The notes beneath the pieces were generated by a model that was not told where the DNA came from, ran no database searches, and was given only the letters and a program-made list of their open reading frames with translations. Below, in pieces: positions 13,837-56,741 of a stretch of 64,000 nucleotides of DNA (positions are counted from its first letter, which is position 1; each line of letters starts with the position of its first letter). This stretch comes from Ignavibacteria bacterium (GTDB lineage: Bacteria; Bacteroidota; Ignavibacteria; UBA10030; SZUA-254), in NCBI GenBank assembly GCA_031379665.1, contig JANNFI010000046.1:33899-97898 (forward strand), read 5' to 3'. The translations under genes were made by a program, and so were the position numbers.

Positions 13837-16176
13837 TCACTTGATGAGCAGCATCCTCTTCGATTGCCGGAAGCCTCCGTCCCCGGCGGAGAGGACATAA
13901 TAGTAGATCCCGGACGAAAAACCGAGGGCATCGAACTCCACTTCCGAGACGCCCTGCTCCAACGGTTCGGCGTCGAGCAGCCTGGCCACTTCACGCCCGA
14001 GCATATCGTAGACGGTGAGGCTCACAAGGGCGTCGGTCCTGAGGGCGAATTCGATCGTCGTGGAAGGGTTGAACGGGTTCGGGTAATTCTGGTAAAGCTC
14101 ATAGTCCAACGGCACGGCCGCGACCGGTTCACGCGGGAAATTCAGCGGTTCCAACAGCGGCGCAACGGCAGCCTGGAGGAAATCAACGCTGTCGATGCTG
14201 ATGACGCCTGTCGTGATCAACGGCACCTTCGAGATGACGGTCAGTGACCCGTAGAAGGCTCCGTTGATCTTCTCGAGCGTCGTGTCGAGGGTCGTCCAGT
14301 TGATCGGTTCATACCGGCCACCGTACGTGAGATAATTGTCCGCCGCCGCGGCGATCCCCCGGAGGGTCATGCCGTTGTAGGGATTGGCGGTATCCGCGTC
14401 GTCGTACGTGAGGTCGCCGAACATCGGGGGCGTCACTTCGGCATCGCTGGCGCCGATGTTGATCTTCAGTGCGATCAGCTCGCCGAGCGTCTTGTTGTTG
14501 TATTTGTCGAGCTTCGGATTCTTCTTTTCGCCGATGAACGGATTGCCGCCAAACGTGGTGTAATAGTCCGAAGGTCCGGTCTGGGGAATGAACTTGGATA
14601 TGTTCACGCCCTTGCTCATCCTGATCCACCCGAACGTCTCGTCGCTGTCCGGTCTGGCCTGGCCGAGGACCATCCCTCCCGGCGCCCCGGGGAAACCCTT
14701 CTTGATCTTGGGATAGGCGGCGGCGAACGCCTCATCACGGAGGTTGGCAAAGTTAGGGACGGACACCTCCGACTTGAGGCTCACGCCCTTTCCGATGATA
14801 TCGGCCTGACGGATCGTCCTGTATTTCAATTCGTCAGGATCAACGTGCTTGATCACGACGAAATCGGTACCCTTGCCCTTCGGTTTGACGCTCGAGGCTG
14901 CCACGTACACGGCGCCGTCGAGCTGGTGCATCCTGTACGGAATATCCTCGCTGTTCGCCGGTCCGTTGTACCGGATGTTCCACTGTTCGTTGCCGCCGTT
15001 GTTGAACCTGATGAGCTTCACGTCGTGTCCGGTGCCGGACCCGACGCTCGAGGCGAGCACCGTGGAGTTATTCCCTCCGACGACGGCAACGCCGGCGTCG
15101 TCGTCGTTGGCGACGCCGCTATGCACTGCGACCCAGTTCTCCGCCCCGTTGCTCTGGTTGTAGCGGATCGTCGTCACGTCGGTGAACGCGCCGGGCCGGA
15201 CGCTCTTCCCGGTGACGAACACGCGCGTATTCGACTGGAGGGCGATGCCGACGCCGTCGTCATCCAGGTGATCAGGACCGTCATAGCGGTTTTCCCAGCC
15301 CGTCGCACCGGTCACCGCGTCGTACTGCAGGGTGAGCATGTCGTATCCGGACGAATCGGTCGCGCTCGAGCCGGTGACGTACAGTTCCGTCGAAGCCCGC
15401 AACACCATGGCCCTCGCGACGCTCGAACCCGTCGTGGACATATACCGCGCACCCCAGAGCGAATCGCCGGTGCCGGGATTATAGCTGATCGTCTGGTACC
15501 CGTTGATCGTGTCCTGGCTCGTACCGGTCACGAAGAGGCCATCGAACCCATCGAGGACCATCGCCGTCACGCTATCGAGGCCGTTCGTCGGTCCGTCGTA
15601 TCGTTTCACCCACTGCTGGACACCGGCGGAATTGTACTTGAGCGTGGCGTAATCCAACCCGCCCGATAGACCGGCGCTCCATCCTGAAACGAAAACGTTC
15701 ATCGAATCGTCGACTGCAATTCCCGACGGGCCGTCGTCCCCGTTTCCCGTGCCGTTGTACCGTACGTTCCAGATCTCGTTGCCGAGGTCATCGTACTTCA
15801 CCGTGGCGATGTCGTAGCCCGATCCTGCGCCGGCGCTCATCCCGGTTACATAGACGTTCCCGGCCGTATCGATCGCAAGAGCGGCGCCTCGGTCCTCGCC
15901 GACGCCATTCTGATAATTCCTGACCCAGAGTCGGATGCCGTCGGAGTTGTATTTCGCGACGGCAAAATCAATGCCGGATGGCTTGTTGTCCATCCAGCCG
16001 GCGGCGTAGACATACCCTGAATCGTCGACGATCACCGAAACGGCGGCATTACTGCCCGTCTTGTTTGTCCCTGTGGTCCTGGAAACCCATTGCCGGGCCA
16101 GCTGCGCCTGGGCGGTGTCCGCGAGGAACGCGCACGACACAATGGCGATGAGAGAAATGGATCTCCCAGGTCTCAT
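13837..16176 (-). CDS. Secreted beta-propeller (SBBP-type repeats) protein with T9SS C-terminal sorting domain.
   Basis: Signal peptide; repeated GYD(I/M)ATVKY / YATLKYN units; C-terminal YQNYPNPFNPSTTIEF...LTVYDMLGREV Por-secretion tail. Confidence 0.75.
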   Translation of the reverse strand: MRPGRSISLIAIVSCAFLADTAQAQLARQWVSRTTGTNKTGSNAAVSVIVDDSGYVYAAGWMDNKPSGIDFAVAKYNSDGIRLWVRNYQNGVGEDRGAALAIDTAGNVYVTGMSAGAGSGYDIATVKYDDLGNEIWNVRYNGTGNGDDGPSGIAVDDSMNVFVSGWSAGLSGGLDYATLKYNSAGVQQWVKRYDGPTNGLDSVTAMVLDGFDGLFVTGTSQDTINGYQTISYNPGTGDSLWGARYMSTTGSSVARAMVLRASTELYVTGSSATDSSGYDMLTLQYDAVTGATGWENRYDGPDHLDDDGVGIALQSNTRVFVTGKSVRPGAFTDVTTIRYNQSNGAENWVAVHSGVANDDDAGVAVVGGNNSTVLASSVGSGTGHDVKLIRFNNGGNEQWNIRYNGPANSEDIPYRMHQLDGAVYVAASSVKPKGKGTDFVVIKHVDPDELKYRTIRQADIIGKGVSLKSEVSVPNFANLRDEAFAAAYPKIKKGFPGAPGGMVLGQARPDSDETFGWIRMSKGVNISKFIPQTGPSDYYTTFGGNPFIGEKKNPKLDKYNNKTLGELIALKINIGASDAEVTPPMFGDLTYDDADTANPYNGMTLRGIAAAADNYLTYGGRYEPINWTTLDTTLEKINGAFYGSLTVISKVPLITTGVISIDSVDFLQAAVAPLLEPLNFPREPVAAVPLDYELYQNYPNPFNPSTTIEFALRTDALVSLTVYDMLGREVARLLDAEPLEQGVSEVEFDALGFSSGIYYYVLSAGDGGFRQSKRMLLIK

Positions 16177-16207
16177 GATGACTCCTGTTTAGGGGGGGAG
16201 AAGCTGA

Positions 16208-18622
<2,415 letters not shown>

Positions 18623-18716
18623 GTCATCTACCGAACGGTGGTAGTATTGAAGCGCGCGTCGAAAATACTCATTGTCGTCAAAGACACTGCGAATCGTCTG
18701 CGGGGAGTTGCAACAA

Positions 18717-18782
18717 GTTACAATTGAATCTCGATTGAATTTCGGTAGAGTTACAGTTGAGTTACAATTGAGTTACAGTCGA
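18717..18782. promoter_or_regulatory. Helically phased 11-bp direct repeats GTTACA(A/G)TTGA in the upstream region of the 16208-18622 gene. Copies start at 18717, 18750, 18761 and 18772.
   Basis: Directly visible; the copy spacing is 33, 11 and 11 bp. Confidence 0.5.
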
Positions 18783-18795
18783 GCGACAGCCTTGT

Positions 18796-21975: not shown

Positions 21976-22011
21976 ATCAGCGCCAGGTGGCGGACATCGC
22001 GTTCTCCGGGG

Positions 22012-26202: not shown

Positions 26203-26438
26203 CGGGAATATCCTTAGTTGACAACGGTGGAAGCGACAGCACCGTGGCGGCGGGCACCGGGTGTCGGGGGAAAAGATATACCTTGAGTATACTCATTTGG
26301 GCGAAAAAGGTCAATATCCCCCGTCGACTATTTCAGGATTACAGACGGTTCCCGGCTCCGGATGCGGGCGGCCTCTTGGCACCCGGCTCACCTCGCATCG
26401 GATAATTCAGGTCATTGCGGTGCATCGAGGGACCAGCG

Positions 26439-27662
26439 TTATTTGCGTAAATCATCCCTGCGCCCTGGCCTGCGACCTTCGGGACTGGCCGGCGACGGCT
26501 CCCACGTGGCGGCCGGCAACGCGGCCGACCCGGTCGGGGCGAGGACGATCGAACCTCCGCTGCCCGACCGCACCCAGTAGGCCTTCCCCGGGCGAATCGT
26601 GTCTGCCGCCTGATAACCGTCGTCGTACCCGAAGATCATCCCGGTGATGTGACCGTCCGGAATTTGCACGATCCCATCGACCGGCACCGGCTCGGCGATT
26701 GATCCGAACAGATTCCATCCCGGCTGGAGTTCGATGGTGTCCGGGTGCGTCGCCTGTCCCGTAAACGCCACTGTGTCCATCCCATCGAACCGGATCCAGT
26801 AGCCGGCCCCCGGCACCGCCACCGTCTCGGCGAGGTATCCGCCATCGTACGCGTAGAGCGGCGTCGCGGCGTCCGGGAACAACGCTGTCGCAGATGGTTC
26901 CGCGACGCTGACCGGAAGCGAGACGAGGTTCCATCTTACGTCGTAGGCGACCATCACCACGACGTCTCCTCCCGGGCCTTCCGTTCCGGACGAATCGTTC
27001 TGCGGTTCCGGGTCCCTCCGGATGAAGTCCGCCCCATTCTCGTCCGAGTCCCTCCCGTTCCCTGAAAGTTCGTCAGCACCGCCCGGCGACATCGAGGCGG
27101 CGTCCGAGGCGGCGTCGGCCTTCCTCTCGACGCTCACGGTGTTGCCGGGCGCCGGGGCCGCGCCCGTTCCCTCGAAGAGATTTGCCGTGCCGTAGCCGAC
27201 AAAATCCACGACTCCCGGACCCACCGGCCCCGCGACGGGGATCGAGTCCGAACAGAGCGCGATCTTTCCCGCAGTGGCGGCCAGGGAGATCGCCGCGACG
27301 GCGTCAGGGGACGGCAACGGAGCCGCTCCCCCGCTCCCGGGGTTCGCCTGGACGAGAAAGAAACCGTTTGCGCGAATAGTCCCCGAGAATTTGGCGACGG
27401 CCGTGAACGGTCCACTCCCCCCTCCCCCCTGGTACTGGATGGACCAGCCGCCCATCACGATGTCGGATGCCGTTGGATTATACAACTCGATGAAATCGTG
27501 CGTGAACGGCGCGCCGCTGTTGCCCCCGCCGCCGTAGACCTCGCTGATCACGACGTGGGAGAGCGGCTGGGCGTTGACGGGGAACGTGACGAACAGGAGC
27601 AGCGCGAAAACGAATACACGACCTCCGATACGACGAAATGGATTGCACTGACGCATGGACAC
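26439..27662 (-). CDS. Secreted lamin-tail-domain (LTD) protein with two copies of the WN(L/I)xSLPV/YxYDxGY/PGxxYW(V/I)R module; no T9SS tail.
   Basis: Signal peptide; VISEVYGGGGNSGAPFTHDFIELYNPT matches the LTD signature; module copies at VRWNLVSLPV...YAYDGGY...PGAGYWIRF and PGWNLFGSIA...FGYDDGY...PGKAYWVRS. Confidence 0.6.
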   Translation of the reverse strand: MSMRQCNPFRRIGGRVFVFALLLFVTFPVNAQPLSHVVISEVYGGGGNSGAPFTHDFIELYNPTASDIVMGGWSIQYQGGGGSGPFTAVAKFSGTIRANGFFLVQANPGSGGAAPLPSPDAVAAISLAATAGKIALCSDSIPVAGPVGPGVVDFVGYGTANLFEGTGAAPAPGNTVSVERKADAASDAASMSPGGADELSGNGRDSDENGADFIRRDPEPQNDSSGTEGPGGDVVVMVAYDVRWNLVSLPVSVAEPSATALFPDAATPLYAYDGGYLAETVAVPGAGYWIRFDGMDTVAFTGQATHPDTIELQPGWNLFGSIAEPVPVDGIVQIPDGHITGMIFGYDDGYQAADTIRPGKAYWVRSGSGGSIVLAPTGSAALPAATWEPSPASPEGRRPGRRDDLRK

Positions 27663-27829
27663 CTCCCGGAATGATCTGTTGAACGATGCGGTCCGCGGGA
27701 GGTCCGCCGTGCGGAAAAATCGAACCAGGAATTAAGGGAGGAACAAGATAGGAGGATGACGCCGCCCGGTCAAGGGGGATTCAATGAGAACTCCGTGAGA
27801 AAACGGAAGCCCGGAGTGGGGGTAGTGCC

Positions 27830-30007: not shown

Positions 30008-30008
30008 C

Positions 30009-32309: not shown

Positions 32310-32396
32310 AAGCCCTCCATCTGGTTGATACCGATGAGTACCAGATGATTATCAGATGATGATCCGATGCACCCCCCTCGGGGGGACGGGGTGCGG

Positions 32397-36796: not shown

Positions 36797-38749
36797 TTAC
36801 TTCATCAGGACCATCTTCTGGACTGACTGGAACTGCCCGTCGTTGACGTTGATCTGGTAGTAGTACACGCCGGTGGCCAGTCTCGCGCCGTCCAGCTCCA
36901 CCCAGTTTTCGCCCGCGCTGAATTCCTCGCGGTCGGCGAGTGTCGCCACCACCTGGCCCAGCATGTTGTAGACCCTCAGCGTCACGATCGCGTCTTCCGG
37001 GATCGTGAATTCGATGGTCGTCGTCGGGTTGAACGGGTTCGGGTAGTTCTGCGAGAGCCCGAACACCTTCGGCACTTCGTAGATCGATGAGTAGTCACCC
37101 GGTGTGGCCACTGGCGCATTGTTCGGACCCGAGGCCTCAAAGATGTCCGAGAGCGCCACCGGCCCGATACCCGTGGCTACAGTGTTGGTTCCGCCCCACG
37201 AGGCGGTATCGAAGGCGCCGGAGAATTCCATGTTCAGCGTTTCGAGGAAGTTTGCCAGACGGACGTAGGTCCACGAGTTGGTCGGGAGGATAGGAAGACC
37301 GCCGTAGCACGCAAGGGCCTTGTCCGCCGAATCCGCGATGGCATCGACCGTCTGTCCCACCCACGACGTCTCCGGTCCGACATACACCAGGTCACGGAAC
37401 CCAGTCGATGGAGTGTGGCCGAGCGAGCTGGCACCCATGTTGAACTTCAGCGCGATCAGCTGGCCGAGCAGCTTATTGCCCATCATCGGCGAATCCTTGT
37501 AACGGACCGTTTTGTCAGGACCGAGGGCCTTCAGCGTCTTGATGTTCGCCTTGCTCTTGATCGTGTCCAGGCAGTACGCCGTTCCGTTTTGCAGGATCGT
37601 CACATTCTTGAACTTATAGAGTGTCTTGGTCACGTCCTTCCACTTCGGGGCGCTGACGTGGTGGATGATCGGCTTGCCCTTCTCGTTCACCCCGATCTGG
37701 CCTGGCAGACCGACACCCCCGCCCAGACCGAGGCTCAGGTTCAGCGGCTGCAGGTACATTTCGTCGCCGATATTGTTCACGTTCGGCTTCGGCAGGCGCA
37801 GAGTGTTGACAAACACCAGCGTTCCGCCGGTGGTCTTGTCATCGTTGAACCATCCCTTGCCCTTCATCGCCTTGCCCTTATTGCCGTTGCCTTCGACGAG
37901 CACGCCCTGGCCGGCTACGAGCACCGGTCCGGGAATCGTGACGTCGTACTTTTTCAATCCCGAAATGTTGATCGGAACGTGGCCGTCCGGATCACCGGGG
38001 AAGGAGATGCTGCCTTCGACGACCTTGTCGAATTCAACGTGGATTTTTGTTCCGCCGCCGACCGGTGAGGTCATTGTCGTGGTGAAATCCACCGAAATCG
38101 GCTTCGGCTTCTCGAACTTGCCGACCTTGCCTTTTGCGTCGGACGCCATGGCGATCGAATCCGCCGTAAACGTACGCATCATCGAGCCGTCGCCGACCAC
38201 GATGTCCACGAAACTGCCCGAAAGGGTGCTGAACGTAGCGTGGGTGAACGAGGTTTGCGCGCTCATGTCAACCGTCGTGAAGAGGAAACCGCCGAAACCG
38301 TCGGTCATATAGAACCCGCCACCGCTCACCGCGCCGAGCCCGGCGGGCCAGGAGAGGGTGATCGGTATTCCGTCCGGATCAGTCCGCCGGAACTTGAGGC
38401 GGTAGACATCCTTCTGTCCGTCGCTCACCAGGTTGCGAATGTCGACCGCGACGCCCTGTCCGAAGGCGAGGCCGCCCGTCGGATCGGTGAGGCGCACATC
38501 GGGTGCCTGGTCGGCGCCGCTCGGCGGAACGGGCGGAAGCTCATTCTCGACGAGGATCGGGCTGATGCTGTCACCGATCGCGTTGGTCGCGACGATGTAC
38601 TTCCCGATGACGACCGAGTCCTTCCATCCAGTCCCGTCCTCAGCGTAAATCTTGACGCTGAAGTTGGTCTGGCTCCACGCTGATGTGGCCCCCAGAAGAA
38701 TGAGGCACACCATCACCATATAGAGCGTAAAACTTTTAGAGATATTCAT
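36797..38749 (-). CDS. Secreted protein with T9SS C-terminal domain (650 aa).
   Basis: Signal peptide; ELPPVPPSG motif; shared LGQLIALKFNMGASS module; C-terminal LSQNYPNPFNPTTTIEF...LRVYNMLGQVV. Confidence 0.7.
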   Translation of the reverse strand: MNISKSFTLYMVMVCLILLGATSAWSQTNFSVKIYAEDGTGWKDSVVIGKYIVATNAIGDSISPILVENELPPVPPSGADQAPDVRLTDPTGGLAFGQGVAVDIRNLVSDGQKDVYRLKFRRTDPDGIPITLSWPAGLGAVSGGGFYMTDGFGGFLFTTVDMSAQTSFTHATFSTLSGSFVDIVVGDGSMMRTFTADSIAMASDAKGKVGKFEKPKPISVDFTTTMTSPVGGGTKIHVEFDKVVEGSISFPGDPDGHVPINISGLKKYDVTIPGPVLVAGQGVLVEGNGNKGKAMKGKGWFNDDKTTGGTLVFVNTLRLPKPNVNNIGDEMYLQPLNLSLGLGGGVGLPGQIGVNEKGKPIIHHVSAPKWKDVTKTLYKFKNVTILQNGTAYCLDTIKSKANIKTLKALGPDKTVRYKDSPMMGNKLLGQLIALKFNMGASSLGHTPSTGFRDLVYVGPETSWVGQTVDAIADSADKALACYGGLPILPTNSWTYVRLANFLETLNMEFSGAFDTASWGGTNTVATGIGPVALSDIFEASGPNNAPVATPGDYSSIYEVPKVFGLSQNYPNPFNPTTTIEFTIPEDAIVTLRVYNMLGQVVATLADREEFSAGENWVELDGARLATGVYYYQINVNDGQFQSVQKMVLMK

Positions 38750-38805
38750 AGCTACCTCGCTTATGATGTGGGTTGTAATTAGTAGATGAAAACTTTTATA
38801 CCTGA

Positions 38806-38851: not shown

Positions 38852-38862
38852 AATTCAACCGT

Positions 38863-42327: not shown

Positions 42328-43407
42328 TCAGAACCCCACCAAGAGGGTAATGACGTGATTCCCCCCAAAAAAATCCGCCGGACGATACGCATAATCAACC
42401 TGAATTATCAGGTTTTGAACGGTTTCGTGGACTCCCACGCCGAACGCCGGACCGAAGATTGATTGGTTTCCTTCTGACTCGGTGGAATAATCGTACCCTC
42501 CCCTGACGAAAAATCGCTCCCGGTACCCGAATTCGGCACCAAATTTGTATTGGTCGTCGGCGAAATTATTATTCCGGAAAAGGGTCGACACCCCGATGTC
42601 GATCGGTTCGCTCAGGTGGTGGAGATATCCCAGGCCCACTTCGATGGTCGACGGCAGGTCGGCCGATGCCGCCTCAACCTTGTAGTTCGTTTCCGGCCGG
42701 TCTGCACTGACGACGACGCCCGTGCGGTCGAGCCCCTCCCCCTCGTAGACGAGTTTCGGTCCGATGTTCCTGATGACCACGCCCACACTCAGGCCTTCAA
42801 TCCCGCCGAGGCGGGCGTACTGCACCCCCCCGGTGAACGCGATGCCGGTCGCGGAGACCTCGGCCATTTTTTCATAGATGAAGTTTGCGGAGATGCCGAC
42901 GGCGATCTGGTCCGACATTCGGCGCGAAAACGTCCCGCCGACGACGAGGAATGTCGGCGAGATCACCTCGCCGGTTCCGTCGGGGAACAGTTCCGTCGTC
43001 ACCGGGATCTCCCCCACCGAGAGCGCCTGGATGGTGACGCCGAGATACGCCCCTCCGGAAAGGCTGGTGCCCGCCGCAAAATAATCGACGCCGATGTCGG
43101 CGAGGTAGGTCATGTGCGAGAACAGGAGTTCCGACGACCGGTCGGTCGTGACGAGGCCCGCCGGATTCCAGGAGATGGCCTCGATCCCCGAGATCGAGGA
43201 AAGGATCGAGCCCCCGAGCGAGATCGAGCGGGCGCCCAGCGGTATGGAGAGCTGCATCGCCGAAGCCGAGCCGACCTTGTCCCCGCGCCCTGCGAGCGTG
43301 GTCGACTGGAAAGCGAGCGACCCCACGATCGACCAAACGAGCATCCAGGCCGCTGCCATCGCCAGCCCGGCGCCGGCCCTTCGGCGGTATCGACAGGTCG
43401 TGGTCAT
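42328..43407 (-). CDS. porV: T9SS outer-membrane channel protein PorV (PorV/PorQ family, FadL-like).
   Basis: N-terminal GARSISLGGSILSSISGIEAISWNPAGL matches the conserved PorV N-terminal motif; about 360 aa, beta-barrel-like; its start overlaps the stop of the upstream large gene, as in known porU-porV operons. Confidence 0.65.
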   Translation of the reverse strand: MTTTCRYRRRAGAGLAMAAAWMLVWSIVGSLAFQSTTLAGRGDKVGSASAMQLSIPLGARSISLGGSILSSISGIEAISWNPAGLVTTDRSSELLFSHMTYLADIGVDYFAAGTSLSGGAYLGVTIQALSVGEIPVTTELFPDGTGEVISPTFLVVGGTFSRRMSDQIAVGISANFIYEKMAEVSATGIAFTGGVQYARLGGIEGLSVGVVIRNIGPKLVYEGEGLDRTGVVVSADRPETNYKVEAASADLPSTIEVGLGYLHHLSEPIDIGVSTLFRNNNFADDQYKFGAEFGYRERFFVRGGYDYSTESEGNQSIFGPAFGVGVHETVQNLIIQVDYAYRPADFFGGNHVITLLVGF

Positions 43408-46400
43408 CGGAGTTGCAGGGTTTGTTGTTCCGGCACGATCATCAGCTTCAACGTCTTTGAGCCGAGGTCGACGCCCGTCTCGTCCTTCATCTCGATGTGC
43501 GCCACGAACAGGCCCCCCCCGACAGGCAACCCGTTGTGGTTGTTCAGGTCCCAGGTCGTGAACTGCGAGGCGTCGTCCTTCTCGATCGTGCGGACCAGGT
43601 CCCCCCCGAGGTTGAAGATTCGGATGACAGCGCGCACCGGTAGATGGCTGAACGTGATGTAGTGCTCGAAGCGGTCCGTCTCAGCCGAGTTGAATCCGTA
43701 GTACGGGTTCGGGAAAACGTTCACCTTCTCGACGGCCTGCCGGGCCGCGCTTACGTCGTTGGTGCTGACCGACGCGGGAGTGAAGACTTTCTCGTCGCCG
43801 TTGCGGACGAGCTTATACCGCTCGAACCTGACGACGGTCCCGGGCGGCGCGGGAACGTCGTCCAGGTCGAGGTCGACGAAGTACACCTTCCATACGGCGT
43901 TCTTGACGGAGTAGGTCCCGCCGTTGACCCAGAGGAACCCCTTCACCCTGGGACCCTCCACCGGCTCCCAGGGGATGTTGTCGTTGTAGGTGCCGGCGAT
44001 GGAACCGGTACCGAGCCTCTGGCTGTCCGATACAATGGTGAGCGGATAGAACTCTTCGAGCGTCTGGCCGTTGTATTCCCTGTCGAGCAGGACGCTCGCC
44101 CTCCAGAGGCTGTCGGAACCACTCCCGGTGATCACCGTGTAGATCTGCCGGAGGATGGTGTCCCCGCTCACCACGCCGGTCTGCCAGGCCGTGAACGGCA
44201 CGCGGGTCCACCGCGAAGAGGGCGCGGTGGGGGCGAGCATCAGCGACCAGCTGGAGTCACCGAACCGGAGCTCCACGTCGACGTCGAGGGGGTTGCCCCC
44301 GAGGATCGTGTCCAGATACGAGGACCCGGCCCCCACCGTCATATAATTGAGTCCGGGGTTCGGCTGGTTGAAGACGGGGCTACGGAGCGAATCGCCCCCC
44401 GAGACCGTTTCGTAGACGCCCTTCAGACCGTAAGGGGGTGAATGACACTCGACCGTGAACCCCCTCTCCACCACCCTGGCCGCGGCGCTGTCCATCGAAA
44501 TGCCCCGCAGCAGCGTATCGCCGGCCGTCGAATCGACCAGGTCCCACCAGGGCTTGGTGAACAGGTCGATCAGCTGGCTGGGGCTCCTGTGGTAGAGGAT
44601 TTTATAAATATGCCCGTCAGGCCGTGTCGGGTCGTAGTACGTGACGTCGACCGTCGCCCCGTTGGTACCAACGATGTCATAGGCATCGGAAACCACCTCG
44701 CCGGCGGAATACGGATATACCACGCCCGGGTTCGGCGAGTGTGGTGTGACCGGGAGGATGACCGGCGCGGAATAGATCCTCTGGTCGAAGAAGGCGACGT
44801 TTGGGTTGAAGGCGCGCGAACGGAGCGCGAAGTAATATTTCTGCCCGTTGACCAGGGGCCGGTCCCTGACGTAATCGTGGGTGATGTCGAGGAACCGCGG
44901 CCAGAGGACGTTGAACGCCGGGAGCGGCACCCAATCCTCGAAAGGCGAGTCGGCCAGGGGAAGCTGGAAGAGTTCGAAGTTCTCGAAACGGAACCCTCTT
45001 GAGGAGTACGATTCGACGGCGGCGAGCGCCGCGGCGTCCGATTCCCAGTCCAGTATGATTTTATCGTCGAGCTCGATCGGCCGCACCGTCGGCGATGGGA
45101 TGGTGGCCGGCGCGGTGAAATTGACGAGGAAGAGGTCCCTCGCGGCACCGACGCTCTCACGGACCCGGGGAATCCCCGAACGATTATCGGTCCCCACCCC
45201 CCCGCCGAGGGCGAACACTACCTCCTGCGTATCCCCTCGCGCGAGCGAGAACGGGCTGGTGGAGAGGAGGAGCCGCCTGTCCCCCTTGGGGATCTCCGTC
45301 CCGTCGACCCAGCCGGCGAAGGTTTCCGGATCCCCGGTCAGCTCGAACTTCGTGCACGACTGCGTCAGCGGATCGATGAAACACTCGGGGAATTCGGAGA
45401 AGACCCCCTCATACCCGTTCATCAGGTACCACATCGTGATGAGTCCCCGAAAATCGCCGAGTCTGGCATCACCGTTCCTCACATCCCCGTCGAGGTAGGT
45501 AAACGAGCCCACCGGCTGGTTCGCATACCCGTCGACCATTCCGCCGTCCCAGTACGCCGTCGATCCGGGGCTCTCCACCCTGGGACCCTGGAGGAGACCG
45601 TATCCGACCACGGAAGGCACCGTCCCGACCTTGTCGAACTCGAAGTCCGACACTTCAGCGTTATACGCGTAGCCGAGCTGGTGAGGGGCATCGTAACCGG
45701 CGTAGTCGTCTGAATAGTTGCCGATGTCGGCGTCGACCCACTTCGAAATCACCATCGCGTCGATTCGCGCGTTCGCCGGGGTCCGCGCGTTCCCCTTGTA
45801 GATGAGCCGGTATTTCTGATAGACGACGTCACCAAGTCTCCCCGGACGGTTGTACGCCCAGCAGGTGACCTGCATCTCGAGGCCGATCGGGAGGGATCCG
45901 TACAGGTTCCGGACGGCCGCGCTGTCTAGGTCGTTGGCGACGAACCAGAGGACCTGGTCGGCGCCGGCGAGTCCCGGTTCGTCGCTGACGGAGTCGTTCA
46001 GCGCGCCGGGGTTCGGCTGATAGCCGGGCGTCCCGTTCCGTTCGTAGTACGGCGCGCCCTTGTCCCAGGGCCATTCGAGCCAGTCCCGCTTGTACTGATC
46101 GCGCAGCCTCGCCAGGTCGGCGTCTGTGACCAGGACGTCGGGGATGCCGTAGGTGTCCGACGCGTCGCGGCGGAGGTCTCCGGTCGCCCAGTCGGAACGG
46201 ATCCTGAAAATCCTCACGTCGGGACTCGAGGGGTTCTCCCTCACACCCGGCTGGACGATCCGTCCCGGGACGGTCGCGGACTGAAACGATTGCCCGCCGA
46301 TCCTGAGAAACTCCTCCTCGCCGTCGTTGACGAAACCACCCCAGAGAATCCCCTCCCTCGACACCACTGTCGAGCTCCCCCGAGGGAAGACGACGCCGGG

Positions 46401-46634
46401 CCCGTCCTTCGCCGGGTTGTAACCGATGACGCCGTTCGAATTCGCCCACATCGTCATCCGGTTGATCGTCAGGGCGGCGGAGGTCGGGGCGCCGGACGCC
46501 GCTTTCGCGGGCGTAGACGTCGGCGCGCCGACTGGTCGCGCGGAAGCGCCGACCGGTTGCGCCGGAGCCCCGCAGTACGCCAGGACGACGAGCAGGATGA
46601 GGGACACCCTCCGTAAGGCCGATTTCGGAATCAT
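43404..46634 (-). CDS. Large secreted protein, candidate PorU-like T9SS component (C-terminal-signal peptidase position).
   Basis: About 1077 aa from the internal Met with a good signal peptide (MIPKSALRRVSLILLVVLAYCGAPAQ); divergent CTD-like C-terminus (VFPNPYYG...VIRIFNLGGDLV); translationally coupled to porV. The catalytic C25-like domain was not verified. Confidence 0.4.
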   Translation of the reverse strand: MIPKSALRRVSLILLVVLAYCGAPAQPVGASARPVGAPTSTPAKAASGAPTSAALTINRMTMWANSNGVIGYNPAKDGPGVVFPRGSSTVVSREGILWGGFVNDGEEEFLRIGGQSFQSATVPGRIVQPGVRENPSSPDVRIFRIRSDWATGDLRRDASDTYGIPDVLVTDADLARLRDQYKRDWLEWPWDKGAPYYERNGTPGYQPNPGALNDSVSDEPGLAGADQVLWFVANDLDSAAVRNLYGSLPIGLEMQVTCWAYNRPGRLGDVVYQKYRLIYKGNARTPANARIDAMVISKWVDADIGNYSDDYAGYDAPHQLGYAYNAEVSDFEFDKVGTVPSVVGYGLLQGPRVESPGSTAYWDGGMVDGYANQPVGSFTYLDGDVRNGDARLGDFRGLITMWYLMNGYEGVFSEFPECFIDPLTQSCTKFELTGDPETFAGWVDGTEIPKGDRRLLLSTSPFSLARGDTQEVVFALGGGVGTDNRSGIPRVRESVGAARDLFLVNFTAPATIPSPTVRPIELDDKIILDWESDAAALAAVESYSSRGFRFENFELFQLPLADSPFEDWVPLPAFNVLWPRFLDITHDYVRDRPLVNGQKYYFALRSRAFNPNVAFFDQRIYSAPVILPVTPHSPNPGVVYPYSAGEVVSDAYDIVGTNGATVDVTYYDPTRPDGHIYKILYHRSPSQLIDLFTKPWWDLVDSTAGDTLLRGISMDSAAARVVERGFTVECHSPPYGLKGVYETVSGGDSLRSPVFNQPNPGLNYMTVGAGSSYLDTILGGNPLDVDVELRFGDSSWSLMLAPTAPSSRWTRVPFTAWQTGVVSGDTILRQIYTVITGSGSDSLWRASVLLDREYNGQTLEEFYPLTIVSDSQRLGTGSIAGTYNDNIPWEPVEGPRVKGFLWVNGGTYSVKNAVWKVYFVDLDLDDVPAPPGTVVRFERYKLVRNGDEKVFTPASVSTNDVSAARQAVEKVNVFPNPYYGFNSAETDRFEHYITFSHLPVRAVIRIFNLGGDLVRTIEKDDASQFTTWDLNNHNGLPVGGGLFVAHIEMKDETGVDLGSKTLKLMIVPEQQTLQLR

Positions 46635-46727
46635 TTGCAGCGGGACCGTACCGACGATGAGTAGTGCAAGGGGAGAAACGTTGTACAATGTACGGAAAAC
46701 GGGGACTGATTTCAAGCGTTCAGGGCA

Positions 46728-46760
46728 GGGTTGAATAAAGGGTTGAATAAAGGGTTGAGC
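46728..46760. repeat. Tandem 12-bp direct repeat GGGTTGAATAAA x2.6 in the upstream region of the PorU-like gene.
   Basis: Directly visible: gggttgaataaagggttgaataaagggttgagc. Confidence 0.6.
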
Positions 46761-46808
46761 ACGAGCGGCGCAGAGGGTCGAAGCGTCGGGGGGGGCGGTG
46801 GTCGAACG

Positions 46809-50207: not shown

Positions 50208-50285
50208 ACCTGAGAGTAAGGAAATGCGGAAGCTCTCCGTGGGGAGAACTTCCGCATCTCGGAATTAATCCGGGTAGAATGAGTA

Positions 50286-51176
50286 TTACTTGAGGAGCAG
50301 GAGCTTGCGCAGCCCGCTGAACCCGGCGTCGTCGCCGGTCGCGACCATCCGGACGAAGTAGACGCCCGTCGTGACGCTCTGGCCATTGTCGTCGGTGCCG
50401 TTCCAGGTCGTGGTGTAGAAACCCGGTGTCATTGTTTCCGCGGCGAGAGTCTTCACCCTCTGCCCGATGACGTTGTACACCGCCACATCCGTGAACGCCG
50501 TCTTCTCAACCGCGAACCTGATGGTGGTCGAAGGATTGAAGGGATTGGGATAATTCTGCTGGAGTTCGAATTGCTCGGGAATCAGCTCGCCTTCGCGGTC
50601 GATTTCGAGAAGGCCCGCACCCTTGGAGCGTCCGATGATGATCAGCGACGTGAACGCCGAATTAGTGACGATGAGCTGCGTATCGACCAACATGTTGACT
50701 CTGAAGCCGAACGGCGGACCCGCGCCAAACGGGTCTTCGATCTTCAGGCTGTCCCAGTCGGATGCGATCCACGCGGCCCAGGTCCCCCACGAGAAGGTGA
50801 ACGGGTATCCGCCGTCGCTCGGCTGGAATTCCATTTTGAAGGTGTCGAGTTTGGCGACTTCCTGAATGTGGAGCCGCTGGCCGGTGCCGAGGCACGGACC
50901 GCTGGTGCGATGGTCCGTGAAACGGAAGTCGAAGACGCCTGTCGGCGGCTTGGGAGGAAGTTCCTCTTCGAAATATCCGCCGGGCGAGAGCGTCGCGTCC
51001 TTGCAATATGTTGCGTTGATGTGAACCCCGAACGTGTCCGTGCCGACACCTATGCCGTTGTCACGGGCTGTGATCGGCACGACGCCGTAATCATTCTGCG
51101 CGAATGAGCTGGAGACCGCGAGGGCCAGAACCGCGAGCGCCACAACAAGGGTGAGCCGAAATGTTTGCAGGTTCAT
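50286..51176 (-). CDS. Small secreted protein with ELPPKPPTGVFDFRF module and T9SS C-terminal domain.
   Basis: Signal peptide from Met at 51176; C-terminal LQQNYPNPFNPSTTIRF...VAVYNVIGQRV. Confidence 0.65.
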   Translation of the reverse strand: MNLQTFRLTLVVALAVLALAVSSSFAQNDYGVVPITARDNGIGVGTDTFGVHINATYCKDATLSPGGYFEEELPPKPPTGVFDFRFTDHRTSGPCLGTGQRLHIQEVAKLDTFKMEFQPSDGGYPFTFSWGTWAAWIASDWDSLKIEDPFGAGPPFGFRVNMLVDTQLIVTNSAFTSLIIIGRSKGAGLLEIDREGELIPEQFELQQNYPNPFNPSTTIRFAVEKTAFTDVAVYNVIGQRVKTLAAETMTPGFYTTTWNGTDDNGQSVTTGVYFVRMVATGDDAGFSGLRKLLLLK

Positions 51177-51292
51177 CTGATGTAGCCTTCCTCTGATAAG
51201 TGTAAAATTGTCCGGTGATTTAGTGTCAGGTGCCTCGCACCGACCGCCAAGGGGAATATACAAACTGATTTTGTCTAATTCAACAGATCAAT

Positions 51293-51335
51293 CGGGTAAA
51301 AACAGTTCCTCCGCATCCCGCTAAGGATGCGGAGG
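51293..51335 (-). terminator. Rho-independent terminator downstream of the 51351-56741 gene.
   Basis: Perfect 11-bp stem CCTCCGCATCC/GGATGCGGAGG with a 6-nt loop, followed on the minus strand by a T-run. Confidence 0.55.
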
Positions 51336-51350
51336 AAAGGAGCCTGACTC

Positions 51351-54300
51351 TTACTTCACCAACACCATCTTCTTCACCTGCGTGAACGTCTCCGATCCGA
51401 TGCCGGCGTCAACGTCGGCGATCGTTTCAGCAACGATTCGGTACAGGTAAACGCCCGAAGGCAGCGAGCTTGCGTCGAATTCGACGGTCTCACTCAGCTC
51501 GATCTCTTCACGGTCGAACAGCGTCGCGACTTCCTGGCCCAGGAGGTTATAGACCTTGAGCGTCACGATCGATGTCTGTGGGAGTTCGAACTCGATGGTC
51601 GTCGTCGGGTTGAACGGGTTCGGATAGTTCTGCGACAGAGCGAACTCGGTCGGGACCTGATCCACCGTCTCTCCGGCGTGTCGGTTCTTTGGCGCCACAC
51701 CCGGGTTCGGTTTCAGGTACGAAACCTGATACACGGACGTATACGCCTTCCACGTGAGTTTCGGCGAGGCCCACCCTTGCAGGGTGTCGTCCGTCGCCGG
51801 ATTGTCAAACGCGCCGTTGATCTTCGCGACGACCGTATCGAGCCCGGCGTAGATGCTGAGCGGCATGAATTCGAAGTTGGTCATCACGGTGTCAGCGTAG
51901 TCCGCGATCTCGTCGATGGTCATCCCATCGAAATCAGAGAGCGGGTCGCTGTAGATCAACGAGCCAAGTCCCGCGGGGGTCTTCAGGCCGCTGGCAACCA
52001 GGTTCAGTTGCAGGGCAAGGAGCTCACCGAAGAGCTTGTTGTTCTGTTTCTTGTTCGGGGCGAAGGCCTTCTGAAGCTTCAGGAACGGCTTGCCCTTGAG
52101 GTCCTGATCGAAGCCACGGGCCATTCCGGTGTGCTGCGCGCTCTTGTTGTTGAGCGATTTCCAGAAAGCGCTCTGCTTGTTCGGGATCACGTGGGCCTTC
52201 ACCTTCCCGCCGGCGTTGAACTGGCCGGTGAGACCTACCTTGATCGCTCCGATCGCCTGACCGGTTTTCCCGATCAGCTGGTCGACAAGGTTGGCCGTGT
52301 TCGGCTTGTTCTTGATCGGATCGTACGGCTTGCCGGCTTTCGGCGTCTTGCCCGGTTTCTTTTCGGCGTCGGCGCCCAGCTGTGCCGCGGTGAACGTGCG
52401 GTACTTGGTTGAGCTGTCCGTTGTCTGGAAGAGACCGAAGTTAAGGGCCGTCGCCGCCCCGCCGCTCAGAAGAGCGACCGGGTATTTCCCTGCCAACGGC
52501 TGGCTGATGACAAAGCCGACTGGTACGGTGATGCGCACCGTATCCACGTCGATCTGGCCGTTGAACGAATAGCCCGATCCGTCGGAGACGTCGATGCCGC
52601 CGTTGACCGCGAGGTCAACAGACACACCCGACATCGCCGCATCCGGTCCGTCCATGATGCCGTTACCGTTGTAGTCACGGTAGACGATACCACTGACGTC
52701 GGTGTTGTCGAAGTTACCGAAGTCCTTGCCGGTGGTGACGACGAAGTTACCGCTGATGCCACTGATGGCATACGTGCCAGGGCCGCTCGGCATCGTCCTC
52801 GTCCATCCGGATTGGACCACTTCTCCGACCACGTGGGAACCGGTGAACACGCTGTCGATGGAGTAGTTGCCGCTTCCATCGGTCACCGTGCTGAAGTTAC
52901 CGAAGTACACGCCGCCGGCCACTGCGATCGTCCAGCCTGAGAGACCCGGCTCTCCGCCTTCCTTCACGCCGTTGCCGTTGAGGTCGTTGAACTTCGTGCC
53001 GCTGATCACCAGATACTTGAAGTCGAGGTAGTCGGCAGTGTCGATCTGGCCGCTGGTCGCGACGATCATACCCTGGAGACCACTCTTCGTCCTGCGCCAT
53101 CCGGCGATCGAGTCGAGTTCCTGCACGACATAGGTGCCGAGATCGAGCTCGGTAAACGAAGCCGCGATCACACCGTTGCCGAGCGTGAACACGCTGTCTG
53201 CCGTGTAACCGACTCCGTTCTTCGTCAGCTTGAAGCTTGAGCTGGATCCGGACGGGACGGCAATGATGTCGCCGACGTCCCTGATGCCGTTGCCGTTCTG
53301 GTCAACAGTCAGCTGAACGCGCAGCTTGCCGTACACGAAGTTGCCGAAGTCCTTGTTGACCGCCGTCGGCGTACCGCCGGTGATGTTGGCGGTGTGGAAC
53401 CCGCCGACAGGACCGGTCTGACGCGCGATAGTGGTATCCAAGACTTCAGTGACATAGAACACGCCGCCGTAGGCGGGAGCGAGAATCGAGTAGAGACCGC
53501 TCCCGTCCGTGACGTCCGAACCAACGAACGCGCCGGCGGTCGAATCGCGATGGACTTCGATCGTCCAGCCGGAGAGTCCGGGTTCGGCGTCATTGACGCC
53601 GTTGTCGTTGATGTCTGAATACTTCTTGCCACTGATCGACCCGGCAAACGTGCCGAAGTTCTGGGTGATCGTGCTGCCGTTCGAGGGGTGATTGATCGTG
53701 GCGGCATTAGAAGTGCCAAACGGAACGGTGAACGCGAAACCCGTGACATTGAGTTTGACCTCATAGCCCGCGGGCAGCGAGACGCCGCTCCAGGTGTAAT
53801 TGCCGGTACCGCTGGTCACCACTGAATCGATGAGCGAACCGAACAACGAGATATACACCTTCGTGGCCGTGATGTCGGCTTCGCCGTCATCGACGCCGTT
53901 GCCGTTCACGTCGTTCCAGGCGTGGCCGGCGATCGTGCCTCCCGTGAAGACCGGGGCGGTGGCGCCGAGGCTGAAGTTATCGAACGCCCATCCGCCGAAC
54001 GCCGCTGATGCATCGGAGAATGCGACGTAACGGAACTTGACGGCTGATGCGCCGACCAGTGCCGCGTGGCTGGTTTCCGTGACCTTCAGCTGGACATAGA
54101 CGTAACCGGTCGGGCCGACAGGCAACCCATTTCCAGGTGTGCCGGTGACGCCGTTGTCGTTGCTCGTCCACGACGCCGGGGGATCAGCAAGACCGTACAA
54201 GGCGGCCGTCGCGTCGTCCCAATTAGCCAAATCCAGGGCGGCATGCTCGTAGAGAGCTTCGTCGTACCAGTTGATGCCGTTCGCATCGTTCAGGACGCCG

Positions 54301-56741
54301 AGGGTGCTCCAGTTGGTGCCGTCAACCGTGTATTGGAGCCAGCTGCGGTCCCACAGGGGTTCGAGCTCTATGCTGTGCTGGAACGAGATGAAGAGGTTGG
54401 TTCCGGCGAAGCCCGAGATGTCGAGCCAGGGGCTCTCCAGGTGGTTCGCGCCGGGATACGTCGTGGCATAACCGTGTGCGGAGGCGTTAGAGCCCTCCGT
54501 GTAGGTCGATGCGTTGTCGGGACGTTCAGTGACCCACGACGCGCCCGAGCCGCCGTTCACGCCGCCGAGCTTCGTGAACGTCGACGAGCGTTTCCAGTCG
54601 ATCGCACCCGTCCAGCCTTCAGCGCTTGCGTTGAAGGTGTACGTGGCGGGAGGAACGACGGGAGCACTGACAGGCTGCGCAGCCCTGATGAGCGTGTTGT
54701 TGGGGATGTTCGCATCGGCGAGGGCCGTCACTGCGGTGATCACCCTGGGGCCTGCGCCAACCGGGGTCCACGAAGCGAATGTGATGCTCTTCGACTCGCC
54801 GGCCGCGAGGACCACGGGTTTCGAATCGCTGTACCCTTCAACGGAAATGGTCAGCAGGATGCTGCTCACCACCGGGGTCTGCGAGTTGTTCTTCACAACA
54901 ACCACCGGGATCTGCGGAACGCCCGCGGGAACGCCACCTGCCGGAGGACTCGTGATGGTCGTCGGCAAGATGTCGCTGGCGAGGAACGCGCTCAACGGGC
55001 TGAACTCGTCAGCTCCCGCATCGCGTTTTCCGGCCACCGTCGTGTCCCTGGGGTCTCCGTCGATGTCGTCGGCGAGGAGGAGCAGGGATTTCCCGATTTG
55101 CTTCGCGCTCGACACCGTCGCGGTATCGATATGCAGGTCCGCGCTGAAATTCACCGGACCGTACAGACCGTTGTTATTCACGCCGGCCGCGAGGGCGGCG
55201 GTAATCGTCGTCAGGCCGGAGACATACCGGCCGCTGCCGGAATGGATGGCGTTATAATTCGCCGCGCCCGCCGCCACCACGTTGATGCCGCGCGTGCTCG
55301 CGACGGTACCGCCCGTGATGTTGTTGGAGAAGGCGTTGTTGGTGATCGCCGTTCCACCGCTCTGATTGAGGCAGGTGGAAGTCATGCCGAGGCCGGTGGC
55401 ACCGACGAGACCCACCGAGTTGTGATAGATCCTCGTCGACTGGGTCCTCATACCCGTGATAGAGCCCCCAGACGGATCGAAGTTCGTGATGTTCGTGACC
55501 CGGTTGTTGTACACAAGCCAGGTCCCGGCGAACGTCACCCTCGCGGTGATACCGAGGATGATGCCGCCGCCACCAAAGCCCGCGGCTGCGGGAAGGGTGA
55601 CTCCGTTGATGTAGTTATTGGAAATTTCGGAGTTCCCATCGCCGTAGTACGCTTGAATGGCACCGTACTGACCGAAATTGAAAAGGAACGACTGGGGCGC
55701 TCCGGCGAACACCCAATCGATGTCCCATTCGGTCGTTCCATTGTTCCAGTAGTAGGCGTTGACTTCGATTCCCTTGAAGTTGTTACCGGTGATATCGAGG
55801 TTAGTGCCGAATTCCGAGTAAATACCCAGGAGGAGCTTGCCGCCGTAGGTACCACCGAAATTGTTGTTGCTGACGGTAATGCCGTTCTGTTCGATCTGTC
55901 CGATGTCCGCATCCTCGGCGAGGATCTTGACGCCGAAGGTGCCGTCGATGATCGTATTGCCGCTGATCGTGATGTCGGAATTTCCGATGGCATCCGCCAC
56001 GCCGACAAACAGGAAGATCGCGCATCGACCATCGGTCTGGGCTTCGAACGTGCCGTCAAGATTCCCGTGGATCGTCGAATTGAGAATCGAGATGTCCGAG
56101 CTGCCGTTGGTCATATAGACCGTCGAGGCAAGCGCATCGCCCGCCGGGAACGGATCGGAGTTGCGCCAGCCGAGTGCCAGGCTCGCGCCGCCGGTGTTCA
56201 AACCGTCGATGGTGACGCCCGAAGCTCCGTCGAAGGCGAAACCCTTTCCTTCGGTGGCCGTTGAAATGAAGCTCACCGTGACCGCAGTGGCGGCCGCGGG
56301 CTGTATCGTGAGGGTATACGTGCCTGCGCCCGTGTAAGCGCCGAACGTCACAGGCGCCAACTCGAGGTAGCTCGCGCTGGCGAGCTCGAACGTGGTGTTA
56401 CCCGAGAGACCGACGAAATTCAACACCGCGACAGCGGCGCCGATGTTCGCAAAGTCTCCGGGAATGGAATACGTCCCGCTCAACCCGAGTGCGTACTGGG
56501 TCTTTGCCGCGGACTTGTCGATCGGGAGTCTCATCGTCGGCCGGGTCATCCCCGAGACTGCCTGTCGGTCGAAACGGCTTGCGCCATTCTTTCCGATGCT
56601 CTGCAGGTCTTCGTCGATGATCCGGGTCGGCCTGTTCGATTGCTGGCCCGAGTTGACTCCATCCCCTCGCCCGGCGATCGCCTGGGTGAAGGTCATCACC
56701 AATATTACGGTGAGGACAAAAAGGAGTTTAGCTTGTTTCAT
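51351..56741 (-). CDS. Giant (1796 aa) secreted protein with parallel beta-helix-like repeats, several SdrD-B/Cna-B-like domains and T9SS C-terminal domain.
   Basis: Signal peptide; repeated NDxNGNGxxDxGExGLSGWTI units (SdrD B-like); NNxITGG beta-helix-like repeats; shared FGELLALQLNLVASG module; C-terminal LSQNYPNPFNPTTTIEF...LKVYNLLGQEV. Confidence 0.7.
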   Translation of the reverse strand: MKQAKLLFVLTVILVMTFTQAIAGRGDGVNSGQQSNRPTRIIDEDLQSIGKNGASRFDRQAVSGMTRPTMRLPIDKSAAKTQYALGLSGTYSIPGDFANIGAAVAVLNFVGLSGNTTFELASASYLELAPVTFGAYTGAGTYTLTIQPAAATAVTVSFISTATEGKGFAFDGASGVTIDGLNTGGASLALGWRNSDPFPAGDALASTVYMTNGSSDISILNSTIHGNLDGTFEAQTDGRCAIFLFVGVADAIGNSDITISGNTIIDGTFGVKILAEDADIGQIEQNGITVSNNNFGGTYGGKLLLGIYSEFGTNLDITGNNFKGIEVNAYYWNNGTTEWDIDWVFAGAPQSFLFNFGQYGAIQAYYGDGNSEISNNYINGVTLPAAAGFGGGGIILGITARVTFAGTWLVYNNRVTNITNFDPSGGSITGMRTQSTRIYHNSVGLVGATGLGMTSTCLNQSGGTAITNNAFSNNITGGTVASTRGINVVAAGAANYNAIHSGSGRYVSGLTTITAALAAGVNNNGLYGPVNFSADLHIDTATVSSAKQIGKSLLLLADDIDGDPRDTTVAGKRDAGADEFSPLSAFLASDILPTTITSPPAGGVPAGVPQIPVVVVKNNSQTPVVSSILLTISVEGYSDSKPVVLAAGESKSITFASWTPVGAGPRVITAVTALADANIPNNTLIRAAQPVSAPVVPPATYTFNASAEGWTGAIDWKRSSTFTKLGGVNGGSGASWVTERPDNASTYTEGSNASAHGYATTYPGANHLESPWLDISGFAGTNLFISFQHSIELEPLWDRSWLQYTVDGTNWSTLGVLNDANGINWYDEALYEHAALDLANWDDATAALYGLADPPASWTSNDNGVTGTPGNGLPVGPTGYVYVQLKVTETSHAALVGASAVKFRYVAFSDASAAFGGWAFDNFSLGATAPVFTGGTIAGHAWNDVNGNGVDDGEADITATKVYISLFGSLIDSVVTSGTGNYTWSGVSLPAGYEVKLNVTGFAFTVPFGTSNAATINHPSNGSTITQNFGTFAGSISGKKYSDINDNGVNDAEPGLSGWTIEVHRDSTAGAFVGSDVTDGSGLYSILAPAYGGVFYVTEVLDTTIARQTGPVGGFHTANITGGTPTAVNKDFGNFVYGKLRVQLTVDQNGNGIRDVGDIIAVPSGSSSSFKLTKNGVGYTADSVFTLGNGVIAASFTELDLGTYVVQELDSIAGWRRTKSGLQGMIVATSGQIDTADYLDFKYLVISGTKFNDLNGNGVKEGGEPGLSGWTIAVAGGVYFGNFSTVTDGSGNYSIDSVFTGSHVVGEVVQSGWTRTMPSGPGTYAISGISGNFVVTTGKDFGNFDNTDVSGIVYRDYNGNGIMDGPDAAMSGVSVDLAVNGGIDVSDGSGYSFNGQIDVDTVRITVPVGFVISQPLAGKYPVALLSGGAATALNFGLFQTTDSSTKYRTFTAAQLGADAEKKPGKTPKAGKPYDPIKNKPNTANLVDQLIGKTGQAIGAIKVGLTGQFNAGGKVKAHVIPNKQSAFWKSLNNKSAQHTGMARGFDQDLKGKPFLKLQKAFAPNKKQNNKLFGELLALQLNLVASGLKTPAGLGSLIYSDPLSDFDGMTIDEIADYADTVMTNFEFMPLSIYAGLDTVVAKINGAFDNPATDDTLQGWASPKLTWKAYTSVYQVSYLKPNPGVAPKNRHAGETVDQVPTEFALSQNYPNPFNPTTTIEFELPQTSIVTLKVYNLLGQEVATLFDREEIELSETVEFDASSLPSGVYLYRIVAETIADVDAGIGSETFTQVKKMVLVK

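Follow-up and report, generated by a model that had tools for sequence, protein, structure and literature searches.

Four T9SS cargo proteins encoded in the window (the whole stretch of 64,000 nt analyzed here) carry an autonomous, previously unannotated globular domain of ~240 aa directly upstream of the type A sorting tail. T9SS cargo is usually described as a variable passenger plus a sorting tail of ~80 aa. What is new here is a third conserved, lineage-wide element between passenger and tail, without a curated model or a solved relative. We are close to certain that this module is a real conserved domain, that its association with the T9SS tail is obligatory, and that the mature protein retains it. 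We further propose that it may serve there as a charge-mediated, membrane-proximal foot. For the whole chain, comprising conserved domain, T9SS export, retention after tail removal, and foot, we estimate a probability of about 0.4.

Four T9SS cargo proteins share a module of ~240 residues

The four genes, here termed A to D, all lie on the minus strand, at the coordinates given in the first-pass annotation (Table 1), and the conserved core strings quoted there were found in the proteins: NKTLGELIALKINIGASD in A (aa 561-578), ATVGEQIALKLNIAASD in B, NKLLGQLIALKFNMGASS in C, and KLFGELLALQLNLVASG in D. Two further segments, G(D/S)L(K/T/I)Y and (I/L)NGAF(D/Y), had been described downstream. Both positions do follow the core, the first as GDLTY (A), GDLKY (B), RDLVY (C), and GSLIY (D) and the later one as INGAFY (A), INHAFD (B), LNMEFS (C), and INGAFD (D), though gene C deviates from the described pattern in both. 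The original length of ~120 aa was too short. The homologous unit spans ~240 aa, from a Y/F-R-T-F strand (beginning at aa ~452 in A, ~478 in B, ~191 in C, and ~1447 in D) to ~29 residues before the NYPNPF motif of the T9SS tail. It includes PNxxNxRD, GW, and GFD motifs upstream of the GELIALK helix. Between GFD and the GELIALKxNIxASDxxxTP helix lies a stretch rich in lysine; downstream of the helix come GDLxY, another helix that contains a D, and finally INxAF. The module of gene C contains ~100 extra residues, placed after the RTF strand.

Table 1. Positions in the 64,000-nt window of the module genes, their parts, and neighboring genes
Feature	Coordinates	Strand	Description
Gene A	13837..16176	(-)	779 aa: signal peptide, SBBP beta-propeller repeats, module, T9SS type A tail
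Module of gene A	14107..14841	(-)	aa 446-690, short form, pI 5.0, atypically acidic
Part of gene A flagged by the first-pass annotation	14254..14496	(-)	aa 561-641: conserved helix NKTLGELIALKINIGASD to INGAF
T9SS type A sorting domain of gene A	13840..14091	(-)	aa 696-779
Gene B	16208..18622	(-)	804 aa: signal peptide, TIGR04275-like beta-propeller repeats, module, T9SS tail
Module of gene B	16493..17212	(-)	aa 471-710, short form, pI 9.1
T9SS type A sorting domain of gene B	16211..16477	(-)	aa 716-804
Gene C	36797..38749	(-)	650 aa: signal peptide, N-terminal domain of ~170 aa, long-form module, T9SS tail
Module of gene C	37070..38194	(-)	aa 186-560, long form, pI 8.6; AlphaFold2 target
Beta-sandwich nested within the gene C module	37796..38095	(-)	aa ~219-318; without counterpart in A, B, and D
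T9SS type A sorting domain of gene C	36800..37051	(-)	aa 567-650
Gene D	51351..56741	(-)	1796 aa: signal peptide, long repeat-rich passenger with SdrD_B domains, module, T9SS tail
Module of gene D	51648..52421	(-)	aa 1441-1698, short form, pI 9.5
T9SS type A sorting domain of gene D	51354..51632	(-)	aa 1704-1796
PorV/PorQ family outer-membrane protein gene	42328..43407	(-)	NF033709, 150.9 bits (cutoff 90)
1103-aa ORF	43404-46715		Overlaps the PorV/PorQ family gene; C-terminus faintly PorZ-like
GWxTD-domain gene	12280-13671		
LPS biosynthesis genes	10330-12283		Directly precede the minus-strand gene series

Pairwise BLASTP of the modules alone gave E values from 6e-38 (A-B) to 0.024 (B-C). When a profile built from the four sequences was run against the six-frame translation of the window, only A to D were recovered, at E values of 1e-96 to 1e-114, with the next match at 7.7; a deeper profile again returned only these four. 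Judging from these comparisons, the similarity among A to D is not a chance one. A second pre-tail module, found in genes 18796, 22012, and 38863, was considered as a distant relative and rejected (hhalign probability 0.06%, E = 0.78).

The C-terminal tails of the four proteins score 27.8-39.6 bits against PF18962 (cutoff 27) and 32-42.9 bits against TIGR04183 (cutoff 23). Direct inspection of the translations identified an N-terminal Sec signal peptide in all four: positive charge at the N-terminus is followed by a hydrophobic core and by an AxA-like site that ends in ...AQA/Q, ...APAQ, ...AWSQ, or ...AIAG. With a type A tail above cutoff and a Sec signal peptide, genes A to D are, on these sequence features, T9SS type A cargo. 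In each of them the module separates a variable passenger region from the T9SS tail, the position already given in the first-pass annotation. The N-terminal domain of gene C is also present in genes 46809 and 50286.

From 12 to 57 kb, the window is a nearly unbroken series of minus-strand genes, 11 of which terminate in a T9SS type A sorting domain; seven of these 11 are without the module. A PorV/PorQ family gene lies within this cargo cluster, so T9SS machinery is encoded here. The core components PorK/L/M/N and Sov are absent from the 64-kb window, and no PorP/SprF partner gene adjoins the module genes. Nor was a conserved partner gene found among the neighbors of one module-only protein and at 13 genome loci, where the only genes seen were further T9SS cargo and housekeeping genes. 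The closest syntenic relative of the window is an uncultured Ignavibacteria metagenome-assembled genome (MAG) contig, CAVRTZ010000028.1, which lacks gene A and encodes counterparts of B and D with 82% and 62% identity, respectively.

The module and its tail recur as a cassette in a large family

To define the extent of the family, an exhaustive HMMER search was performed with a 12-sequence profile, from which the sorting domain had been left out, against 1.84 billion cluster representatives. It had been suggested that the module may be specific to the family of the four paralogs. The search instead matched 986 clusters (50% identity) at E ≤ 1e-3, 745 at ≤ 1e-10, and 201 at ≤ 1e-30, and homology therefore extends well beyond the four genes. 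Word-indexed searches yielded at least 11 and at least 28 proteins, few because 8000 candidates were scored; a tiny family size was rejected on comparison with the exhaustive profile search. A resemblance of the four paralogs due to chance or composition, or a duplication private to the lineage and of no broader significance, could be read into the B-C pairwise BLAST E value of 0.024 and into these few word-indexed matches, but is vanishingly improbable given the 986 clusters with 201 at E ≤ 1e-30, the occurrence of the module at independent loci from at least nine MAGs, and the confident, co-evolution-driven fold described below (pLDDT 89.8). All named sources and genome loci are Ignavibacteria, Ignavibacteriales, or "Bacteroidota bacterium" MAGs; the genome loci, at least 13, were gathered with one narrow peptide pattern from the four-sequence alignment and under-sample the taxonomic range. 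Tandem pairs of module genes also occur at loci L001 and L006.

The C-terminal architecture of the family is uniform. Among the best 158 of the 986 matches, the T9SS tail directly follows the module in all full-length members, and the distance from module end to C-terminus has a median of 97 aa (interquartile range 93-99). The N[YF]PNPF motif is present in 145 of these 158, and the other 13 have variants (PSPFNP, HPNPFNP, etc.) or are truncated fragments. In 90% of 136 members, 26-32 aa separate the last conserved module residue from NYPNPF; a correlation of this kind, between module position and the site of tail cleavage, had been put forward as a check in the first-pass annotation. This module-tail linker is 13% proline. 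The module-linked tails are mutually 52% identical, but share 38% identity with the tails of the seven window proteins that are without the module. With a set linker length and tails that resemble each other more closely, module and tail behave as one cassette.

Upstream of the tail, the proteins are more varied. The modules of the best 158 of 986 fall into two size classes, ~225-275 aa (A, B, and D-like) and ~325-375 aa (C-like), and the inserted beta-sandwich that characterizes the long form occurs in about half of the family. Some 20 of the 158 best proteins consist of a signal peptide, a long-form module, and the tail alone, with the mature N-terminus at YRTF. In 20 sampled members plus A to D, the passengers are diverse and adhesin-like, including SBBP and other propellers, BNR/sortilin, SdrD_B, cadherin/Big_9, FG-GAP, DUF642, LamG, and Ig-like repeats; no enzyme passengers were found in this sample.

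Such regular coupling raises the question of whether the module is an extended T9SS secretion or processing signal, that is, a docking, folding-control, or PorU/PorV-positioning element beside the type A tail whose task is finished after export and cleavage. The obligatory association with the tail, the near-constant linker, and the closer subgroup formed by the module-linked tails are all consistent with this, and there are precedents in type B CTDs, of which >200 residues, and not just the final 100, are needed for secretion (PMC10202324), and in the "long" CTDs of Prevotella (PMC11969387). We nevertheless consider it quite unlikely. The module-only proteins would lose all mature product with the tail, so that nothing would be delivered, and a pure processing role, entertained in the first-pass annotation, is improbable for the same reason. 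These proteins indicate that the module is part of the delivered product and not merely a signal. In addition, the seven window cargo proteins that carry type A tails without a module indicate that the local T9SS can do without it, and a type A tail alone is enough for export in studied systems (PMC4804311). Searches for a type B CTD (PF13585 CHU_C/TIGR04131) gave CHU_C matches of 20.1 and 21.3 bits in B and C, below the cutoff of 27 and overlapping the type A match, and none in A and D. We thus favor a module retained in the mature protein. The module-only proteins also hint that more than anchoring is performed by the module or by the beta-sandwich inserted in it, a point that counts against the foot proposed below.

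The module is a compact alpha/beta domain outside known families

We then compared the module with curated families and solved structures. No family in Pfam-A (2025 copy, E ≤ 0.1) or NCBIfam 20.0 (E ≤ 1) covers the module in A to D, where all matches fall on passengers and tail, and the module region gave no match to the tail models PF18962 and TIGR04183. When 57 diverse module sequences were searched against Pfam, no family was hit by two or more of them at E ≤ 1, and module profiles run against all PDB sequences reached a best E value of 0.88. In public records, the proteins are named "T9SS type A sorting domain-containing protein," "hypothetical protein," or after their passenger, and the module is never annotated. 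Searches of the literature on Ignavibacteria T9SS cargo and pre-CTD domains turned up no description of it.

An AlphaFold2 model of the gene C module, built from a 57-sequence alignment, was obtained with a pLDDT of 89.8 and a pTM of 0.86, with 291 of 375 residues at pLDDT ≥ 90. The module is predicted to be a single compact globular alpha/beta unit and not the extended stalk first suggested for it. In the model, an N-terminal YRTF strand is followed by the beta-sandwich of the long-form insertion (~34-133) and then by the core, which comprises short strands and two helices, one bearing PNxxN and the other located in the lysine-rich part. Three long helices come next, at 241-257 (the motif of the first-pass annotation), 283-294, and 310-322; short C-terminal strands follow, and the final ~15 residues form a disordered linker. 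For gene A, a model from a 12-sequence alignment reached a pLDDT of 53 and was compared by helix positions alone, being left out of the fold searches. Its helices at 117-133, 160-176, and 182-193 are at positions equivalent to those of the C module. A Foldseek search of the PDB with the whole 375-aa C model gave no match at E ≤ 1e-3, with TM scores to the query of ≤ 0.18, and a structure search of BFVD with the whole C-module model returned nothing meaningful. By these whole-model searches of PDB and BFVD, the conserved core as predicted would be without a detectable solved structural relative. Assignment to a known domain, raised as an alternative at the outset, thus found no match in Pfam, NCBIfam, PDB sequences, or structures.

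Columns conserved in ≥ 75% of 141 sequences (C-module numbering) include P137, N141, G162, G173-W174, N240, L249, K250, N252, S256, T261, G267, L269, G280, D291, T295, N321, F324, and D329; no conserved Cys/His or recognizable catalytic motif is present in the module. Some of these residues bear on a different explanation, namely that the module is an independent ligand-binding or catalytic domain (adhesin, lectin, or enzyme-like) for an external substrate such as a polysaccharide, a mineral surface, extracellular DNA, or another cell. The polar helix residues N252, S256, D291, T295, and N321 could mark a specific site, and the module-only proteins would also fit. Adjacency to the tail would on this explanation reflect the addition of domains at the N-terminal side. 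A domain of this type would be expected to occur occasionally at other positions or with other anchors, but in the best 158 of 986 the module is always penultimate with a fixed linker. The lack of Cys/His or a catalytic motif also argues against it, as does the lack of any enzyme or lectin likeness by sequence or core fold in the searches above. We regard this explanation as doubtful, yet deserving of more weight than that of an extended signal.

A basic module between acidic regions suggests a membrane-proximal foot

Charge bears on function as well. The module has a median pI of 9.4, exceeding 8 in 90% of 137 members, whereas in these proteins the median pI is 4.7 for the N-terminal passengers (1% above 8) and 4.6 for the tails. 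The K/R-rich columns are grouped at 170-228, together with K250 (C-module numbering). In the window, the modules of B, C, and D are basic and that of A is acidic, against the trend, and ~10% of family members have a non-basic module. The pre-tail region is acidic or near neutral (pI 4.6-6.1) in six of the seven window cargo proteins without the module. Basic charge is not quite a module-unique trait of pre-tail regions in the window, as the BNR propeller of 30009-32309 has a pI of 10.3.

In Porphyromonas gingivalis, sortase-like tail removal and attachment to anionic LPS are established (PMC4560394, PMC4804311); PorU tail removal combined with glycolipid attachment has been documented in Porphyromonas and Prevotella alone (PMC4560394, PMC11969387). 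We infer that the Sec pathway and subsequently the T9SS export the module proteins, and that a PorU-type sortase would release the sorting domain by cleaving the linker, a position extrapolated from Porphyromonas. If the tail is cut inside the linker, the mature surface protein would end in the module, which would then be its domain nearest the membrane. With the passenger acidic and the outer membrane anionic, the conserved positive charge of the module between them points to a foot or retention domain. The PorV/PorQ family gene and the LPS biosynthesis genes in the window are in keeping with this reading. More speculatively, the positive charge of the module may lie against or bind the anionic outer-membrane surface, whether lipopolysaccharide or an acidic surface polymer, and the module may thereby serve as a foot by which acidic passenger domains of very different kinds are held and oriented. 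Where a long-form module is the sole passenger, it might present the inserted beta-sandwich. The charge-mediated foot or retention mechanism itself is a tentative prediction, to which we give rather less than an even chance. A bolder version, in which the module is a new fold that, as a positively charged foot on the cell's own LPS or surface polymer, mediates a distinct, non-covalent or lattice-forming retention of T9SS cargo in the Ignavibacteria lineage, appears improbable to us, slightly more so than the extended-signal reading.

Comparison with known C-terminal elements and implications

The general architecture of these proteins is textbook, and the module is not in itself a surprising mechanism. 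The "choice-of-anchor" domains of NCBIfam are of unknown function, are defined by an adjoining C-terminal sorting signal, and pair with several anchor types. The same logic of adjacency applies to the module, but it is seen only with T9SS type A tails, and no NCBIfam model, choice-of-anchor included, matches it at E ≤ 1. Among the closest known systems are also small beta-sandwich binding modules (CBM32/CBM-like, the Clostridium perfringens enterotoxin C-terminal domain, and TM1070).

The T9SS type A sorting domain itself (PF18962 Por_Secre_tail/TIGR04183) occupies the C-terminal end of the same proteins. This CTD is a seven-stranded Ig-like sandwich of ~75 aa (PMC10202324), whereas the module is a separate, upstream alpha/beta element of ~240 aa with three long helices. 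The Ig-like (IgSF) domain of gingipain RgpB (PMC4804311) is likewise penultimate, precedes a cleavable type A tail, and stays on the mature surface protein. It is unrelated to the module in fold, size, and sequence, being all-beta and confined to a protease family, whereas the module occurs on many unrelated passengers and also alone. The extended regions of type B CTDs and the "long CTDs" of Prevotella intermedia (PMC10202324, PMC11969387) are likewise conserved C-terminal regions much larger than the ~80-aa signal and tied to T9SS export, but the module proteins end in a clear type A tail, with a disordered, proline-rich linker between module and tail. The module is therefore a member of none of these groups, be it the RgpB Ig-like domain, choice-of-anchor domains, or type B and long CTDs.

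Collectively, these data show that one lineage uses a second, much larger conserved element coupled to the tail, in proteins for which public records annotate the tail alone. Annotators gain a new domain model, and T9SS research gains a candidate element for surface retention or positioning in bacteria other than the well-studied Bacteroidia. As a compact, confidently predicted domain without a solved relative, the module is a good target for structural and binding studies. If the charge-based foot is correct, it would show how a group dominated by uncultured organisms keeps diverse acidic proteins on its outer membrane. Under the bolder, improbable version with non-covalent or lattice-forming retention, cargo would not depend solely on PorU-mediated covalent attachment, and the module-only proteins would be structural elements of that surface layer.

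Variation around the A–D genes

Gene A (13837-16176), the only one of the four module-bearing cargo genes A–D whose copy of the module has an acidic pI, was missing from the closest syntenic relative, locus L005 (CAVRTZ010000028.1), where the GWxTD-domain gene comes immediately after the B orthologue. This absence suggests a recent gain or loss of gene A. At another module-carrying locus, L001, an A-like gene adjoins a B-like gene.

Repeats were also observed here. At 18557-18597, 6.8 tandem copies of the hexanucleotide GAGGAC (97% match) code for the (Leu-Val)n hydrophobic core of the gene B signal peptide; a change in copy number would preserve the frame and alter signal peptide length. Three intergenic tandem repeats, with 11-12 bp units and ~3 copies each, were found immediately upstream of cargo/T9SS genes, and may be regulatory sites or may have arisen by chance.

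A candidate attachment-complex pair

The gene at 42328-43407 belongs to the PorV/PorQ family (NF033709, 150.9 bits) and shares 4 nt with the end of the ORF upstream of it (43404-46715, 1103 aa). This ORF starts with TTG and had no Pfam match, and its last ~100 residues are weakly similar to the PorZ C-terminus (E 4e-4). Together, the two may form a divergent T9SS attachment-complex pair inside the cargo cluster. The pair is kept at locus L008, beside orthologues of D and 46809. Just beyond the cluster, a 501-aa ORF (57700-59205), approximately twice the usual length, matches gas-vesicle protein GvpL/GvpF in its C-terminal half (aa 241-492; E 3.5e-13).

Evidence of domain shuffling, and a second pre-tail module

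The ~170-aa N-terminal domain of gene C also occurs in three further cargo genes (BLASTP E 1e-11 to 8e-8), a recurrence that is further evidence of domain shuffling within the cluster. Cargo gene 30009-32309 encodes a strongly basic BNR/YCF48-like propeller (pI 10.3 for the 250 aa before the tail), and its tail is the closest non-module tail to those of A–D (45-51% identity).

Features in and around the cargo genes
Feature	Gene	Position
N-terminal domain of gene C	C, 36797-38749	aa 12-176
Same domain type	46809-50207	aa 12-183
Same domain type	50286-51263	aa 30-159
Same domain type	18796-21975	aa 521-617
Second pre-tail module	18796-21975	aa 677-902
Second pre-tail module	22012-26202	aa 1003-1301
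Second pre-tail module	38863-42036	aa 661-956
Second pre-tail module, partial	26439-27662 (no tail)	aa 243-312
Short tandem repeat	upstream of B	18748-18783
Short tandem repeat	upstream of 30009	32333-32369
Short tandem repeat	upstream of 43404	46727-46758

Three other T9SS cargo proteins have in common a different conserved pre-tail module of ~230-300 aa, part of which is carried by a fourth gene. This module is non-basic, with the motifs WNLMSLP, AYGY, GYW.K, WNIIG, and FELPPAPP, and bears no relation to the A–D module (hhalign probability 0.06%). This genome thus seems to make a habit of alternative "penultimate" cassettes.
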